From IMG/VR virus record IMGVR_UViG_2711768037_000005, positions 1 to 64,000 of that record: DNA of 64,000 nucleotides. The stretch is one strand, 5' to 3'. The translations under genes and the position numbers were made by a program. The DNA is from a virus (lineage: Duplodnaviria > Heunggongvirae > Uroviricota > Caudoviricetes). Positions 2,138 through 48,498 of this stretch are shown piece after piece. Every line of letters begins with the position of its first letter. The stretch's first letter is position 1. The notes under the pieces are model-generated. The model was given only the letters and a program-made list of their open reading frames with translations, did not search any database and was not told the DNA's origin.

Positions 2138-2874
2138 AACGCACATACTCTAAAAATCTTTATGAGTTTCCTCACCGTGGGGAAACTCGCGTTTCACGTT
2201 TTGGCTACCTCATCAACGAAGCATCGCTTTTCAAAATATCCGAAATAACCATTATCGAGCCTGATGATGATATCTGTCTGTATATCCTGATGGAGAAAGT
2301 TGGAGCACGAGATCAGGGTGAACTGATGGACTTCATTCTGGACAGAGGCGAAGATGGAATGTCTGATTCGGACATTATTCAAGCAATTCTGCGTTCCGAC
2401 ATGCTCGATCAGAGTAGAAACACGATAGCAGGCAGAATTGCCTTGCGTGAATACACATTCATCGAGGATGGGGTAGAGATTGACTGCTATCAGATTGCAG
2501 GTGTTGAGACAGAAAGAGCAATAAGGCAAAGGGGACTATGCAACCTCACGTATCGCTTCCTCCTTCATTGGTACGAACATCTTGTCTGTGATTACAATCA
2601 GACCATTCCTGGCGCAAAAATCTGGGCCGGTCCATTAATGCGAACAGGTGATGTAAGAATTTACAACGCAAAAACTGAGATGTTCGAGGATGTGTTAGGC
2701 GAATATGGGATGGGAAAAGAAACCGGCTTTTTGCCGTGGAACAGAGGATTGTTACTTGATCCAGAATTAAGCTCTTGGTTTCCAAATAAGGTGCAAGTTA
2801 ACGTTGAGAAATTTATCGTACTTATCATCTCCCGCAAAACAAGAACCCCAGTTGGTTTATATCTAAAAGATTAA
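2122..2874 (+). CDS. hypothetical protein
   Basis: ORF track; followed by an intrinsic terminator. Confidence 0.45.
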   Translation: MAPTLERTYSKNLYEFPHRGETRVSRFGYLINEASLFKISEITIIEPDDDICLYILMEKVGARDQGELMDFILDRGEDGMSDSDIIQAILRSDMLDQSRNTIAGRIALREYTFIEDGVEIDCYQIAGVETERAIRQRGLCNLTYRFLLHWYEHLVCDYNQTIPGAKIWAGPLMRTGDVRIYNAKTEMFEDVLGEYGMGKETGFLPWNRGLLLDPELSSWFPNKVQVNVEKFIVLIISRKTRTPVGLYLKD

Positions 2875-2879
2875 CAATT

Positions 2880-2903
2880 AGGCGACTTCGGTCGCCTTTT
2901 TTG
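2880..2903 (+). terminator. rho-independent terminator
   Basis: Hairpin AGGCGACTTCGGTCGCCT followed by TTTTTT. Confidence 0.5.
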
Positions 2904-3050
2904 TTAACAGCCATTGATTCTCGCCTAAAAATTCTAAGGCAGCACCAACCATTTAACCTTTACACAGCAGCCGTAGGCATTTAGGCTATATCACATATAA
3001 GAAAACAAGTTGTTTCAGACAATAATAATAGACGCAAAGGGAACTCTCCA

Positions 3051-3719
3051 ATGACCAAGATCTTTGTGGTTGGCGGCACAAAGGGCGGGCCTGGCAAATC
3101 CACCGTTGCCCAGCAAATTGCCGTTTGCCTGAAAGTCAAAAAGAAGAAGAAGGTTTATATTACCGATATAGATATTCAGCGCACGACAACGAGCTGGTGT
3201 GAAGACCGTCGACAGAACGAAAACCTTGAGCTGATTCCTTTTGCATATGTTCAGGATGACATCATTAAGCATCTAAAATCGCTTCAGGGTAGAGCTGAGT
3301 TTGTAGTGGTAGATGCTGGTGGCTTCGACTCCGAAATTCAGCGACAAGCGATGCTGATGGCTGACGTTATCATTATCCCGCTGCGTCCTAAGCGTCGTGA
3401 TTTGAAATCTTTACGTGACATCGATCCTATTATCGACAATGTTCGCAATGTAAACGATAAAGTGAAGGTCCGTGCGGTCATGAACCAGTGCCCGGCTTTG
3501 CCATCACAAGTGTCTCGCATTCTGGCGGCTAAAGAGATTGTCGAGACGTTTGGCATCGAGCCTGCGCCTGTCAATCTATATAACCGCAACGTCTACGATG
3601 ATGCGGAAGAGTCTGGTCGTTCTATCTTTGAAATGACCGGTAGCGAGCGCGACAAAAAGGCGGAAGCCGAGTTTGAAGAATTTGTAGATTATCTATTGAG
3701 TCTGGAGGAAGAAGAATAA
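3051..3719 (+). CDS. parA: ParA/MinD-family partition ATPase (small ParA type)
   Basis: Deviant Walker A GGTKGGPGKST at N-terminus; 222 aa; stop overlaps start of a small downstream gene. Confidence 0.75.
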   Translation: MTKIFVVGGTKGGPGKSTVAQQIAVCLKVKKKKKVYITDIDIQRTTTSWCEDRRQNENLELIPFAYVQDDIIKHLKSLQGRAEFVVVDAGGFDSEIQRQAMLMADVIIIPLRPKRRDLKSLRDIDPIIDNVRNVNDKVKVRAVMNQCPALPSQVSRILAAKEIVETFGIEPAPVNLYNRNVYDDAEESGRSIFEMTGSERDKKAEAEFEEFVDYLLSLEEEE

Positions 3720-10899: not shown

Positions 10900-11190
10900 A
10901 TGAGCAATTTAACTTCTTGGGACCGGTGGTTGGCCACCTATTTCTTAGCGGCCGGAGTCGCATTCGCCTTTTACGTAGGTCAGTTAGTCGTAAAACTGTT
11001 GCTGATTAAATTTGCTAGTCATAAACGTATCGATGATGGTCTGTGGCGTCTTGGCACCCTGGTGGAAACTCGCTACGGGCAACTTAAGGAGAACGAAACC
11101 ATTACTATCCAAGCGAAACGATTCACTGCCACCATCACAAGAACACCTAGTCGTAGAGTGGCCTTGATCAAAAAAGTTACAACCGAATAA
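10900..11190 (+). CDS. hypothetical membrane protein
   Basis: ORF track; TM-like WLATYFLAAGVAFAFYVGQLVV. Confidence 0.3.
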   Translation: MSNLTSWDRWLATYFLAAGVAFAFYVGQLVVKLLLIKFASHKRIDDGLWRLGTLVETRYGQLKENETITIQAKRFTATITRTPSRRVALIKKVTTE

Positions 11191-11957
11191 AAACATATCG
11201 ATAAGTGTTTACTTACTTATCCTTTGTGTATAAGATGACTTTGTTTTCGTTGAGACGCGACTGTTTGAACTTAAATACAAGTGCAAACGAAGAAGTCTAT
11301 CTGGCAGTAGCCTAATAAGCCAAACACCAGCGAGGTCAGTTTCCAGCCTCGTTACCGAAATGGGACACACTGAGCGAGTGTGATTGCAGAACGCAGGAGG
11401 GAACATGAGTGTTCCCTCCGATGAAGTAACAAAATGGGCGGTCGGTATATTTTCAACTCCATATGACTCCCGGATTCTTAGCCACTGACCGCCCATTCTG
11501 TTACGTCATTTTGTTCAATTATGTCGTTTATACTGGGTTAAAAAGCGGCGACGTAGCCCGGCTGGTATGGTTAGCCAGCACACAACGTTGAGGCCATTAC
11601 ATTTTTATCAATTCTAAGGTTCTATTCACAGAGATACCGGCGAGCGTTGATATGTAACATGTTGGGCAAACATTTAATCGGAGTAGTGGCCTCAACATTG
11701 TGAAGACGGGATTGTTGTGTAGGTTTAACCACTGTTGCCTGTTTTCACAACAAATGATTCCATACATCACATTGTATAAATTACAAAGTAGGTGCTGTCC
11801 TCAGAAACATCATCTACTTAAAGATTTAGCCTTCTATTGAGCGAAGTCGAAAGCGTCTGGCACTAACGAAAAGTGCAAGTAGCGGTGCGTTTCCTGGCAG
11901 AAACTAACACCGCCGCGATTAGCACTGTTGAGTAATAAATACTGTCAGTGCTGAATT

Positions 11958-12029
11958 GATGGTGTAGCTCAGCGGTAGAGCAGTTGGCTGTTAACCAACT
12001 GGTCGGTGGTTCGAATCCACCCACCATCG
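11958..12029 (+). tRNA. tRNA-Asn (anticodon GTT)
   Basis: Acceptor GATGGTG/CACCATC, D-arm TAGCTCAGCGGTAGAGCA, anticodon loop CTGTTAA, T-loop GGTGGTTCGAATCCACC, CCA encoded. Confidence 0.8.
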
Positions 12030-12037
12030 CCAATTTA

Positions 12038-12121
12038 GGGGAGTTAGTCCGTAGAGGTAGCGGTGTAGACTGTAAATCTACTGTCATGGCGACTCGGGTG
12101 GTTCGACTCCATCACTCCCCA
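12038..12121 (+). tRNA. tRNA-Tyr (anticodon GTA), long variable arm
   Basis: Acceptor GGGGAGT/ACTCCCC, anticodon stem-loop GTAGA-CTGTAAA-TCTAC, long variable arm, T-loop TTCGACT, CCA encoded. Confidence 0.75.
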
Positions 12122-12128
12122 CCAAATT

Positions 12129-12201
12129 GCCGGTTTAGCTCAGTTGGTAGAGCGGCTGCCTTGTAAGCAGGATGTCAGCGGTTCGAGTCCGTTAACCGGC
12201 A
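12129..12201 (+). tRNA. tRNA-Thr (anticodon TGT)
   Basis: Acceptor GCCGGTT/AACCGGC, D-arm TAGCTCAGTTGGTAGAGC, anticodon loop CTTGTAA, T-loop GGTTCGAGTCC, CCA encoded. Confidence 0.75.
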
Positions 12202-12695
12202 CCAACATAATATTGAGAACATTGGCGTAACGGGTTCATATCCCAATTTATGAATAAATGTTGCGTTGCCGCGTGACAACCAGTGTTCTCAACATTGTGG
12301 TGAATGCACAGGCTGATGTGCCGCAACTACAGTAGTGCGCGCTTTGCGGGGCTTGCTACAACCCTGTGTCGGAGATCAGCGCCGACCATCACAATTTGGC
12401 TCTCTTGCAACAGCATAACGCTGAAATATGTCCAATCTGGTGCGGCCTGTTCACCCGCCGTTAGCTCCACGAAACGGAGCGCACAACAGGAAAGAGCATT
12501 GAGAACCGCCGACTGCCCTGTTTGAAGCGTAAGTCCGTGCAAACGTCATACAGTGCTCTTTTCGTTGTGGTTGATGCGCAGACTGATGCGCGGAAAGAAA
12601 TGCCCCAGCGACACACGAGGCGAGTTCACACACTGCATTGCAGTCAGTAGCCGGGGTCGCTAAGCCGGAGATCAGTACCGGTAACCACAACAATT

Positions 12696-12779
12696 GGAGA
12701 GTAGGGAGCATGGTGCTCAAGCGGTCTTGAAAGCCGTCCCATTGCGCAAGCGATGATGGTTCGATTCCATTACTCTCCG
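12696..12779 (+). tRNA. tRNA-Ser (anticodon TGA), type II, putative
   Basis: Acceptor GGAGAGT/ACTCTCC, anticodon loop CTTGAAA, long variable arm, T-loop GGTTCGATTCC, CCA encoded; D-arm is atypical so the call is tentative. Confidence 0.55.
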
Positions 12780-13008
12780 CCAGACACAGCGTTGAGCGGT
12801 TTGGCCTTTTAATCAACCAGATTAAGACTCCGCTAACATAAACCAAACCGCTCAACGCTGTGTGTGAAATTCCACATATTTTATACATATCCATTTACGC
12901 AATTTTTTATTGTTCTTTCATACATTACTCTTATATTTTATTGTCGTTTTTTAACTGCTAAAATCGTATCGATTTTAGCTAAAGTTTATCGTTAAAGGAG
13001 TAACGATT

Positions 13009-14922
13009 ATGTCATTCATTGACTATGATATTTTGTCAGCATCATCAAGCAAAGAGCTTAGAGAAAAACTTGCGGAGAAAATCGCAGAGGGTTGGCAACC
13101 TTTCGAGTCACCAAACATTGTTGAACCAAGTAAGGGCGGACCAAATGCGTACAATCAAGCAATTGTGCGATCTGGTGATTTATCACAATTGCCCACACCG
13201 GTATCAAATGAAGATGAAGAGCCTGACTATTATTATGTAGTTACTATCGCAGGTCAATCTAACTCAATGTCATACGGCGAAGGACTGCCTATGCCAAAAA
13301 CTTTTGATCGGCCACATCCTCGCGTAAAACAGTTAGCTCGACGCAGCAATATTAAACCTGGTGGTTTTGCCTGTAAGTACAATGAAATAATTCCCGCTGA
13401 TCACTGTCTTCATGATGTACAAGACATGACTAAATTAAAGCATCCAAAAGCAAACGACTCTGAATATGGATGTGTTGGTCAGGGATTACACATTGGCAAA
13501 AAACTATTACCATTCATTCCAGCAAACGCAGGTATTTTGCTTGTTCCTTGCGGAAGAGGTGGTTCTGGTTTCACTGTTACAGGCTCTGAAGGCCAATATT
13601 ATGAAGAGTCAGGTGCAATCGAATCATCTTTAAAATGGGGATTAAATACTCCTTTGTATAAGGATATTGTAGCCAGAACAAAAGCGGCCTTAAGTAAAAA
13701 CAAAAAGAATGTATTTCTTGGTGTTGTCTGGATGCAAGGCGAAGCTGATTTGGCAACTGGCAAGCACTCGCAGCATAACGAACTGTTCCTCAAGATGGTC
13801 GAAGGTTTCAGAAAAGAGCTATCTCAATACGACGCACAATGTGTTTTCGGAAGTGCTGCAAATGTACCCTGGATTTGTGGCGATACGACCTACTGGTGGA
13901 AAAACAAATATCCAGAACAGTACGAAATTGTTTATGGTGGTTATAAGGGAAAAACCGCACAAGCAATTTATTTCGTTCCATTCATGAAAGATGAGAATGA
14001 TAATAACGTATTAACCAATAGCCCTACAGATGATCCAGACATCACATCTATTGGCTATTATGGTTCCGGTCATCGCAAGGATAATAAAACATGGACTTCC
14101 GAGAGTAGAGAGAGTCATTTTGGTTCATGGCAGCGACGCGGAATAATATCTGATCGTCTCGCAACTGCGCTCCTTGAACATTCAGCGAAATCATCTGCTT
14201 TTGTGAATGGCGTTACAGGTGAGATTATTAAACAAGAACAACCTACTCAACCTAAAAATGACAACATTGTCACAACTCCAACCCCGCGAACGGTTATTTC
14301 CTTAACTGGAGCAGGTGGTGATGTCGCTACTGAACAAGGATGGACTGTAACTGGTGCAAATATTCAGTCAGTTGAAAACGGAAAAGCAATTGCTTTAACT
14401 AAAGCGGTTTCTAACAAAACCTGGACGATCAGTAAAACTACTGACATAGCACAGGCTCTTCTTGAGAATGGAGGTAAATTACTTTGTAAGTTTAAATTAT
14501 CTGGAAACCCCGATCCCAAAAAAGCCAAGTTTGGCTTTGGTATATATTACAAAACCAGTAAACCTGTTGCTGACGATATATCATTCGACGGTACTGGGAG
14601 CCTGTTTCTGGCTAACTTCTTCCTTCAAACAATTGGAGGCAAGTTGAACATTATGATGCACAAGACAGGCAATAATCAAAATGTTCAGATAGACTCATAT
14701 GGTGACTACGACAACAATTGGCACACTCTTGAGTTGCAATATGAGAAAGGCACAGGAACTGTAATTCCCGTTCTCGATGGCAAGGCGGGAGGTAAATTCA
14801 AGCTGGTTAAAGACAATATTGCTCTTGGTGATGAGGCTTTTGTTTTAACAGATATAACAAACAACCAAACTCATGATCTTGCTATCGAAACACTTACCAT
14901 TAGCATCAACAACCCAACCTAA
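13009..14922 (+). CDS. SGNH/SASA-type carbohydrate esterase domain fused to a C-terminal beta-sandwich (lectin-like) domain
   Basis: GQSNSMSYGEG signature of sialate O-acetylesterase-like domains; Thr/Gly-rich beta-strand-like C-terminal half; gene visibly AT-rich; lies between the tRNA island and the recombinase. Confidence 0.5.
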   Translation: MSFIDYDILSASSSKELREKLAEKIAEGWQPFESPNIVEPSKGGPNAYNQAIVRSGDLSQLPTPVSNEDEEPDYYYVVTIAGQSNSMSYGEGLPMPKTFDRPHPRVKQLARRSNIKPGGFACKYNEIIPADHCLHDVQDMTKLKHPKANDSEYGCVGQGLHIGKKLLPFIPANAGILLVPCGRGGSGFTVTGSEGQYYEESGAIESSLKWGLNTPLYKDIVARTKAALSKNKKNVFLGVVWMQGEADLATGKHSQHNELFLKMVEGFRKELSQYDAQCVFGSAANVPWICGDTTYWWKNKYPEQYEIVYGGYKGKTAQAIYFVPFMKDENDNNVLTNSPTDDPDITSIGYYGSGHRKDNKTWTSESRESHFGSWQRRGIISDRLATALLEHSAKSSAFVNGVTGEIIKQEQPTQPKNDNIVTTPTPRTVISLTGAGGDVATEQGWTVTGANIQSVENGKAIALTKAVSNKTWTISKTTDIAQALLENGGKLLCKFKLSGNPDPKKAKFGFGIYYKTSKPVADDISFDGTGSLFLANFFLQTIGGKLNIMMHKTGNNQNVQIDSYGDYDNNWHTLELQYEKGTGTVIPVLDGKAGGKFKLVKDNIALGDEAFVLTDITNNQTHDLAIETLTISINNPT

Positions 14923-48078: not shown

Positions 48079-48498
48079 ATGTTTAGTGAAATGTTGCTTG
48101 AAGATGAACTGGATCGGAAAACAACAGAGGCTTTGATTCGTGTAGCGGACGAACATTCCCGGTCGCTTATGAGCGATCGAGAGGCTCGTCTGGCTATTCG
48201 TGCCATATTCGAAACTGCGCAGGGGCTTGTTGGTACACAAGTGGGTGAAGCCATTAACATCGCCATGTCTCAGTTCAGTGAAGGCAGTAAAAAGCCTCTG
48301 TTTCCTATGCATTTGATGCTGGCTGGTGGCACGGTGCTTTATATCTCTGTTTGTCTGGATAGCAACCAAATCAATATTCTCAACACTGTGTCAGGTAAGT
48401 GGAAAGATCCGATTGTCTGTGAAACCAGTGAAGAAACTTTGAAAAAAGCGGCTCAATTTGTACGTAGCGCACTACTTAAGGGCGCTAAGAAGTTGTAA
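48079..48498 (+). CDS. hypothetical protein
   Basis: ORF track. Confidence 0.4.
   Translation: MFSEMLLEDELDRKTTEALIRVADEHSRSLMSDREARLAIRAIFETAQGLVGTQVGEAINIAMSQFSEGSKKPLFPMHLMLAGGTVLYISVCLDSNQINILNTVSGKWKDPIVCETSEETLKKAAQFVRSALLKGAKKL

Follow-up and report, generated by a model that had tools for sequence, protein, structure and literature searches.

A putative modular operon of tRNA-like, tmRNA-like and hairpin RNAs around the tRNA genes of an SSU5-like phage-plasmid, with related modules in P1 and other enterobacterial phages

The first 64,000 nucleotides of the IMG/VR virus record IMGVR_UViG_2711768037_000005, here called the window, carry four tRNA genes set among other structured elements at positions 11208-12862. 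The reading that we cautiously favour is that this segment is one plus-strand non-coding RNA operon of interchangeable cassettes in an SSU5-like phage-plasmid, and with the same guarded preference its parts are taken to be a tmRNA-like tag module, four genuine tRNAs, the tRNA-shaped units U1, U2 and Ux, a module named M, and spacer hairpins. On this reading, the tRNA island is one end of a modular RNA operon common to many unrelated enterobacterial phages, including P1. The modules are unannotated and undescribed in the sources searched, and the literature search, whose coverage was incomplete, found no description of the cassettes. The cassettes would be variants of tRNA-like RNAs, of a tmRNA-like RNA and of processing hairpins, an assignment for which the comparative support is solid as far as structure is concerned.

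The repeats and a module-wise comparison of nine related loci give a regular layout, in which a long hairpin lies between each tRNA or module and the next and all modules are oriented as the tRNAs. Many hairpins directly precede a unit, and in these the hairpin and the unit share 6 nt, GUUGUG, with which the one ends and the other begins. A preliminary description of the region had reported the four tRNAs, three long hairpins and two units of roughly 110 nt; the hairpin at 12482-12569, the unit at 11697-11751, the module at 12396-12480 and the tag module at 11242-11396 were absent from it. The units and the long hairpins, on which most of the argument rests, are the following.

12294-12395, plus strand: unit U1, closing stem AUUGUGGUG/CAUCACAAU, structure obtained by comparison
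12564-12691, plus strand: unit U2, closing stem GUUGUGGUU/AACCACAAC, ending 4 nt before tRNA-Ser
11697-11751, plus strand: Ux, a hairpin-type unit, UUGUGAAGACGGG ... CCUGUUUUCACAAC (inverted repeat I14)
11581-11702, plus strand: hairpin HP1, ends CACAACGTTGAGG ... CCTCAACATTGTG, recognised by its repeats and end motif, fold z -4.9
12206-12299, plus strand: hairpin HP2, starting 2 nt past the CCA of tRNA-Thr, fold z -4.5
12482-12569, plus strand: hairpin HP2b, CACAACAGGAAAGAGCAUUG ... CAGUGCUCUUUUCGUUGUG (inverted repeat I25, direct repeat D3)
12785-12862, plus strand: terminal hairpin HP3, with a 21-bp perfect stem, fold z -9.8

U1 and U2 are the two units of the preliminary description, which saw in them diverged copies of one element, the second adjoining tRNA-Ser. 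The two copies are related, their common 5' motif occurs twice against 0 expected, and U2 does adjoin tRNA-Ser, but they are not a mere duplicate of one unit and are instead two members of a large modular family. More units were gathered with the 5' pattern in a viral contig collection (>119 loci), and 53 distinct unit cores were aligned with the variable middle removed; core extraction demanded 8 of the 9 closing-stem pairs and left the P2, P4 and loop-loop pairs unforced. All unit types have the closing stem GUUGUGGUG/CACCACAAC, which is constant and has 8-9 bp, a helix P2 after a 3-base link, a middle of 0-90 nt, which is a type-specific insert in the place of the anticodon arm, and a 5-bp helix P4 that abuts the 3' strand of the stem. 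U1 has P2 GCACA-GGCUGA-UGUGC and P4 GUCGG-AGAUCAGCG-CCGAC, with a loop-loop pairing of GCUGA with UCAGC, and U2 has P2 GCGCA-GACUGA-UGCGC and P4 GCCGG-AGAUCAGUA-CCGGU, with ACUGA pairing with UCAGU, so that both sides are changed with respect to U1. The 5' strand of Ux overlaps the 3' end of HP1, and homologues of Ux follow HP1 in SSU5 and Klebsiella phage-plasmids.

The analysis of covariation that the preliminary description had proposed bears the units out. The four unit helices, including the loop-loop pairing, are compensated across the 53 cores, with 98.2% of cells paired and 9 of 24 pairs changed on both sides; the loop-loop pair 19:42, for example, is G-C in 45 cores, G-U in 4 and A-U in 3. 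The observed pairing values were reached by none of 500 shuffles, and partners slid along the alignment paired in only 25-53%. G.U cells outnumber A.C cells in the cores (55 vs 7), which points to the plus strand as the folded strand, as for the tRNAs. The cores are 92% identical across unrelated phage families whose genomes otherwise show no kinship. A hammerhead or a C/D box was also considered for the motif CUGAUG ... GAUCAG and rejected: there is no ribozyme match in Rfam, and the motif consists of the two sides of the loop-loop pairing.

Comparison shows a unit body of predicted tRNA-like architecture, in which the acceptor-like closing stem stacks on the T-arm-like P4 and the loop of the D-arm-like P2 pairs with the loop of P4 at the elbow. 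Neither U1 nor U2 has T or D loops of canonical form, although this arrangement of stem, P4, P2 and loop-loop pairing is present. Canonical arms occur in sister units built on the same GUUGUGG/CCACAAC stem, with AGCUC-AGCGGGUUA-GAGCU as D arm and UUCGACU, UUCAAAU and UUCGAGU as loops of the T arms. The family appears to span a range from near-tRNAs to forms like U1 and U2, where the contact of D loop and T loop is replaced by five Watson-Crick pairs, and a tRNA-like ancestry of the units is supported by these sister types. U1 and U2 themselves have no anticodon arm and no match in ARAGORN or in Rfam, even at E-values up to 10. Their closing stems are not followed by CCA (CACAAU-UUGG and CACAAC-AAUU), and none of the unit types encodes CCA or an anticodon arm.

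The three long hairpins of the preliminary description are real, with borders at the positions listed above, and fold far better than shuffles (0 of 200 shuffles folded as well as HP1, HP2 or HP3). The end sequences that it saw them share also hold: the window has 6 occurrences of the end motif CTCAACRYTGTG where 0.04 would be expected, and 5 of the 6 are in this region. The sixth, at 48379-48390, lies within a coding stretch, has no inverted partner and is a chance match. The interior of HP2 contains a T-arm-like GGG-UUCAUAU-CCC, and copies of this hairpin that are 94-98% identical are found in P1, P7, D6 and others. HP3 is kept in SSU5-like relatives and has a more distant version in Klebsiella, and the commonest hairpin type of the whole family is CACAACAGGTAAGAGCATTG.

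Across 247 oriented loci there are 170 distinct hairpins (293 instances) of 66-165 nt. Their basal helix is mostly CACAAC/GUUGUG, often followed by an unpaired A (88 of the 170) and then by about 13 more pairs; the stems comprise 6 + 13 positions, with at least 11 of the 13 paired and an optional one-base bulge, and amount to ~19-20 bp. Stem cells over the distinct hairpins are Watson-Crick in 2869 cases, G.U in 235 and A.C in 20, and the excess of G.U over A.C indicates a plus-strand RNA. The stems are conserved and the interiors hypervariable, falling into 83 unrelated clusters. A hairpin starts 1-2 nt past the CCA of a tRNA, or past the last hairpin of a module, and ends in the 5' strand of the next unit, and so GUUGUG has two possible partners, the upstream CACAAC of the hairpin and the downstream CACAAC of the unit. 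In the lambdoid-type loci L053, L088 and L081 this three-part design recurs with other letters, CCCAC / GUGGG / CCCAU. Hairpins cut by RNase III have about 20 bp or more of mostly uninterrupted double strand, a length that the family stems reach and that HP3 exceeds with its 21 perfect pairs. A role of the hairpins as processing signals, which the preliminary description had listed among its options, would fit their position between every pair of modules and their G.U-rich stems.

Upstream of these elements lies the tag module, whose parts and neighbours are as follows.

11208-11234, plus strand: promoter-like stretch, TTTACT, 15-nt spacer, TATAAG, weak and read from the sequence
11242-11396, plus strand: tag module, matched weakly by the mRNA-like part of Rfam tmRNA models, with a conserved frame and pseudoknots
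11242-11282, plus strand: 5' leader of the tag module
11283-11318, plus strand: tag reading frame GCA AAC GAA GAA GTC TAT CTG GCA GTA GCC TAA TAA, that is ANEEVYLAVA, stop, stop
11330-11365, plus strand: pseudoknot PK-A
11366-11396, plus strand: pseudoknot PK-B
11396-11419 and 11421-11509, plus strand: two hairpins present only in the SSU5-like version of the module, fold z -7.4 for the pair

The tag module has the mRNA-like region of a tmRNA, with a resume codon, a short frame with a hydrophobic end and an in-frame stop. A scan with the tag pattern gave >119 viral loci, in each of which a tag of 10 codons fits AN[DE]xx[YF]LAVA, with 12 variants of this form among them; the tag of P1 is ANDDLMMVAA. 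A search that fixed only the flanks and let the gap vary over 27-40 nt gave 58 matches, none of which differed in length; frame 0 alone stayed open throughout the set, and the changes were synonymous, conservative or from stop to stop. Two H-type pseudoknots, both 3' of the tag, have compensated variants in both stems, and an equivalent of the upstream pseudoknot PK1 was not established. PK-A is paired in 135 of 135 loci, with at least 5 variants of stem 1 and at least 6 of stem 2, and PK-B behaves likewise; these variants were counted by script, and MAFFT gave two PK-A subtypes different registers. The further hairpins that the preliminary description had reported were found again as the last pair listed, and in SSU5 and Klebsiella relatives the first of them has another sequence but the same structure.

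The promoter-like stretch stands just upstream of GUUUUCG, the conserved 5' end of the RNA, and homologous elements in other phages have a strong TTGACA-17-TAGATT or TTGACA-17-TATAGT at an equal distance. The tag element is 76-86% identical over ~100 nt to unannotated stretches of FelixO1-like myoviruses, Klebsiella and Vibrio siphophages and other phage-plasmids. It usually comes first in a tRNA operon, just after the promoter, and in lambdoid-type prophages it comes just after a terminator, upstream of the lysis genes. Of 5426 complete E. coli genomes 691 carry it, always without annotation as RNA, and among genomes taken one per species the pattern occurs only in three Enterobacteriaceae.

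Scores for the tag module fall below the Rfam cut-offs (permuted tmRNA model 12.9-20.7 bits vs 47, beta model 14.4-17.3 vs 84), and the related element of phage wV8 reaches 15.4 bits. No tRNA-like domain accompanies the tag module in any lineage, ARAGORN calls no tmRNA in the window or the related loci, and Rfam gives no further tRNA-like match in 11000-13100 at E-values up to 10. The tag module looks translated, yet it lacks the domain that would take it to the ribosome. In wV8 (locus L016, 1702-1784) a D-armless tRNA-like element with an anticodon loop containing UCU, a G3:U70 pair, A73 and CCA directly follows the tag module; G3:U70 and A73 are the alanine identity set used by tmRNA, and their presence in wV8 may be a coincidence. 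Its candidacy for the tRNA-like domain absent from the tag module was rejected: at that place sister FelixO1-like phages carry a normal tRNA-Arg(UCU), and the window has no counterpart.

The remaining RNA elements of the array are module M and the tRNA genes.

12396-12480, plus strand: module M, with 21 distinct homologues, compensated stems and an invariant ACGAAAC loop
11958-12032, plus strand: tRNA-Asn(GTT), encoded CCA, ARAGORN, Rfam tRNA 75.5 bits
12038-12124, plus strand: tRNA-Tyr(GTA), encoded CCA, ARAGORN, Rfam tRNA 41.6 bits
12129-12204, plus strand: tRNA-Thr(TGT), encoded CCA, ARAGORN, Rfam tRNA 68.2 bits
12696-12782, plus strand: tRNA-Ser(TGA), atypical class II, encoded CCA, ARAGORN

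Module M consists of a stem UUGG/CCAA, a hairpin GCGG-CCUGUUCAC-CCGC and a terminal hairpin GCUCC-ACGAAAC-GGAGC, after which comes CACAAC. Two 5-bp hairpins (11860-11876 and 12461-12477) have the 7-nt loops AACGAAA and ACGAAAC, which are complementary to GUUUUCGU at the invariant 5' end of the tag module (11243-11251). A pairing between the ACGAAAC loop of M and this segment was considered and rejected, as M stands beside only 16 of ~145 tag modules and in SSU5 the other of the two loops has changed without compensation.

The four tRNAs named by the preliminary description are all called by ARAGORN on the plus strand, which finds no others in the 64 kb. The Rfam scan that it suggested places Asn, Thr and Tyr above the gathering score of the tRNA model, and tRNA-Ser, which passes ARAGORN only, is not reported by that model and has the tRNA-Sec model as its best match (42.3 bits, cut-off 47). 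The GenBank record of phage D6 has a tRNA-Ser whose amino acid was not assigned by tRNAscan-SE.

Escherichia phage CMS-2020a matches the entire segment 11200-12900 at 95.5% identity; other SSU5-like phage-plasmids match it only in parts, and pieces of the segment are 90-97% identical to P1, P7 and D6. These matches identify the window as an SSU5-like phage-plasmid of Enterobacteriaceae. Its closest relatives differ by whole modules: Cyrano has Asn, Thr and Ser tRNAs and no units, one CMS-2020a isolate has another unit type before tRNA-Ser, and another plasmid has a unit of P1 type in the slot of U2. The same modules occur in P1, P7, D6, SSU5-like and FelixO1-like phages, Klebsiella and Vibrio siphophages and lambdoid-type prophages. 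This rapid gain and loss of modules between near-identical phages would fit an accessory role in the interaction with the host. The P1 counterpart of the segment has the C1-controlled ban promoters on one side and ban on the other, and the tag module of P1 lies between a dicF-like region and tRNA-Asn. The lambdoid-type IMG/VR contigs L053, L088, L081, L035 and L051 have the order hairpin, tag module, hairpin, and then M or a unit; these cassettes stand right after a tR'-like terminator and upstream of the holin and lysis genes, in the slot of the tRNA genes of Stx phages.

From the structures, their covariation and strand, the module order and the exchange of cassettes among unrelated phages, we infer a possible course of transcription, processing and function. 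The operon would be transcribed as a single precursor, in which each long hairpin would form first and then be cut. The likeliest nuclease for this is RNase III, whose substrates must offer roughly two turns of double helix. The cut would release the 3' trailer of whichever tRNA or module lies upstream, so that it can be trimmed, and it would also free GUUGUG, which could then close the unit with the downstream CACAAC. RNase P would trim the tRNA-like 5' ends, and its cut at tRNA-Ser would set the 3' end of U2. The products would be nuclease-resistant small RNAs, tRNA look-alikes unable to decode. The units may act as tRNA mimics, decoys for host enzymes or for defence nucleases that bind the tRNA body, or they may be natural tRNA scaffolds that present the variable insert as cargo.

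Several points weigh against the operon of tRNA-like and hairpin cassettes as described. Folded as single sequences, U1 and U2 do not outperform their shuffles (z -0.8 and -1.35), and therefore the structural support for the units is comparative and not thermodynamic. The counts for the closing stem, P1, are partly selected, by the pattern and by the stem filter, and the diversity of the units is found largely among close kin, with the shuffle tests overstating independence. Rfam has no family for the units or the hairpins, nor for module M, at gathering or permissive thresholds, where only micro-RNA and snoRNA noise appears, and a consensus scan of this region of the window returned neither a promoter nor a relevant terminator. 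It is from the shape of the RNAs that RNase III and RNase P are proposed, and the decoy and scaffold roles are tentative.

A rival view, in which duplicated tRNA genes and spacer DNA have left the units and hairpins as decaying, functionless remnants that travel with the working tRNAs, seems to us unlikely. The preliminary description had allowed for decayed tRNA-like genes, and the ancestry that this implies stands, since sister types with canonical D and T arms are built on the same stem and the units are clearly tRNA-derived. The T-arm-like fragments in some hairpin interiors, such as GGGUUCGAAUCCC, the loss of modules in close relatives such as Cyrano and the unremarkable single-sequence folds of the units would also suit decay. 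The units are not merely decayed, however, because their four helices are maintained by compensatory changes, including a tertiary-like loop-loop pairing that replaces the contact of T loop and D loop, and because the cores recur in unrelated phage families, nearly unchanged in otherwise unrelated genomes; conserved hairpin stems around hypervariable interiors likewise speak against it. A protein-coding explanation, in which the region encodes small minus-strand proteins, is very improbable. In P1 (locus L001, NC_005856; the stretches concerned, for these ORFs and the tag module, are 2575-3144 and 2019-2170) the minus-strand ORFs plp, a putative lipoprotein, and upl are annotated exactly over the hairpins, a minimal unit, U1 and module M, with a copy of U1 that is 97% identical lying under upl, and the window has minus-strand ORFs of 44, 71 and 147 aa. 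The 147-aa ORF, though, runs antisense through tRNA-Ser, the plp region of P1 is replaced module-wise in relatives without the ORF being kept, the region is unannotated in most records, and the G.U asymmetry favours a plus-strand RNA. As the preliminary description held, the region has no credible protein genes: its ORFs are short, and none that overlaps the array reaches the threshold of a Pfam family, which leaves no alternative protein reading. The plp and upl features are probably mis-annotations of a plus-strand RNA array in the ban operon. A 637-aa ORF lies just downstream of the array (13009-14922), and its counterpart in a related plasmid (L014) is annotated as a DUF6645 domain protein.

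The hairpins could also act as DNA, as recombination sites or miniature mobile elements that shuffle RNA-gene cassettes in the manner of integron attC sites or MITEs, a possibility that we rate as improbable. Like attC sites, they are imperfect palindromes of 60-160 nt between cassettes, with complementary ends (...CACAAC / GTTGTG...) that put AAC and GTT in the same places, an unpaired base, here the conserved A that follows CACAAC in 88 of 170, and a variable centre; modules are exchanged exactly at hairpin borders, and integrase genes lie near the array in some SSU5-like elements. The ends fit the attC consensus RYYYAAC ... GTTRRRY only loosely (ACACAAC / GTTGTGG), and the G.U-rich stems, with 235 G.U against 20 A.C cells, are expected of a plus-strand RNA hairpin and not of a symmetric DNA site. 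Hairpin orientation is fixed relative to transcription, the RNA-gene cassettes are all transcribed one way, and no IntI-type integrase stands alongside; the annotated neighbourhoods of the P1, FelixO1-like and siphophage loci share no integrase, and no recombinase is common to the P1-like, SSU5-like, FelixO1-like (virulent) and lambdoid carriers. The end motif does not behave as a dispersed host repeat of MITE type, being confined to this operon in the 64-kb window apart from the chance match. Comparably improbable is a split phage trans-translation RNA, in which the tag module and a unit belong together and the 3' end of the module, made up of its last hairpin, one base N and CACAAC, pairs with GUUGUG and the D-like hairpin of the next unit once the long hairpin has been excised. 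The two pieces would then form a tRNA-like domain by which the tag template reaches stalled ribosomes. Likeness to tmRNA is seen in the tag frame, in the A-rich stretch before the resume codon, in a stop codon placed in a hairpin loop and in the two pseudoknots, and permuted tmRNA genes do yield two-piece base-paired RNAs (PMC11915505). In many loci the final hairpin of the module is followed by (A/G)CACAAC-A and then by the long hairpin, and the three-segment design covaries (CCCAC / GUGGG / CCCAU in L053, L088 and L081). The module and the units have neither a G3:U70 pair nor CCA, though, no CACAAC or unit follows the FelixO1-like and SSU5-like tag modules, units and tag modules are often apart, and the units are self-contained folds.

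Beyond the operon of interchangeable RNA cassettes that we favour, a bolder version can be put forward, to which we give little credence. At least five unrelated lineages of enterobacterial phages, including P1, would share a toolkit of translation-RNA look-alikes expressed from tRNA operons, in which stalled ribosomes would read the tag template, aided by a partner, and the phage would in this way relabel unfinished proteins with its own tag ending in ...LAVA. The partner, in this rather far-fetched scheme, could be a unit, a phage tRNA-like RNA such as the wV8-type element with G3:U70, or the host SmpB-tmRNA. It would further imply, at the same low probability, that the tag template derives from a tmRNA whose own tRNA-like domain was lost, and that the three-segment design of hairpin and unit is an RNA switch triggered by processing.

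If these RNAs are made, they would form a large unannotated class of phage non-coding RNAs in P1, SSU5-like, FelixO1-like and lambdoid elements, the last as prophages, and the carriers include SSU5-like phage-plasmids that are common in clinical Enterobacteriaceae and FelixO1-like phages used in therapy. They would also be a natural case of the tRNA-scaffold principle, with the tRNA elbow replaced by base pairing, and would make it a testable question whether phages tamper with ribosome rescue or with tRNA-directed defence by means of RNA mimics. For annotation, the short ORFs called over such cassettes are probably spurious.

Among known systems, the nearest analogues are, by description, the tRNA cluster of phage T4 and, for the tag module, tmRNA; the T4 cluster likewise has small RNAs of unknown function among phage tRNA genes. 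The T4 tRNA genes are co-transcribed with the stable RNAs species 1 and 2 (rnaC and rnaD), which have no known function and are matured by host tRNA-processing enzymes; species 1 RNA is reported as an RNase III substrate, and the T4 tRNAs without encoded CCA need RNase BN and CCA addition. T4 is not known to have any counterpart of the constant acceptor-like stem, of the elbow formed by Watson-Crick pairs, of the hypervariable hairpins that serve as spacers or of the tag module. The tRNA scaffolds that Ponchon and Dardel are said to have engineered in 2007 carry a cargo RNA in the place of the anticodon arm and are reportedly processed and stabilised like a tRNA in E. coli. Those scaffolds were designed in the laboratory. 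The units would be their equivalent in nature, with a stem of 8-9 bp, without CCA and with an elbow made of base pairs.

With tmRNA (SsrA; RF00023, permuted form RF04321) the tag module has in common the 10-codon frame that starts from GCA AAC GA., its hydrophobic end and stop, the A-rich context before the resume codon and the downstream pseudoknots. The E. coli tmRNA reads ...AAUAGUC GCA AAC GAC GAA AAC UAC GCU UUA GCA GCU UAA UAA, which is very like the tag frame of the window and its lead-in. The tag module differs in having no tRNA-like domain, no G3:U70 and no CCA, in having two pseudoknots only, and in being phage-borne at the head of tRNA operons. A recent tmRNA census requires a complete tRNA-like part with CCA positions, and would therefore reject elements like the tag module (PMC11915505). 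In the TMERs of murine gammaherpesvirus 68, a viral tRNA-like element is joined to hairpins, from which it is separated by tRNase Z (PMC4838037). The likeness lies in a tRNA-like element and downstream hairpins within one transcript, with tRNA-like parts that do not decode (PMC4838037). The TMERs are eukaryotic units transcribed by pol III, and their hairpins are pre-miRNAs cut by Dicer, whereas the array of the window would be a sigma-70-type operon with several cassettes per transcript.

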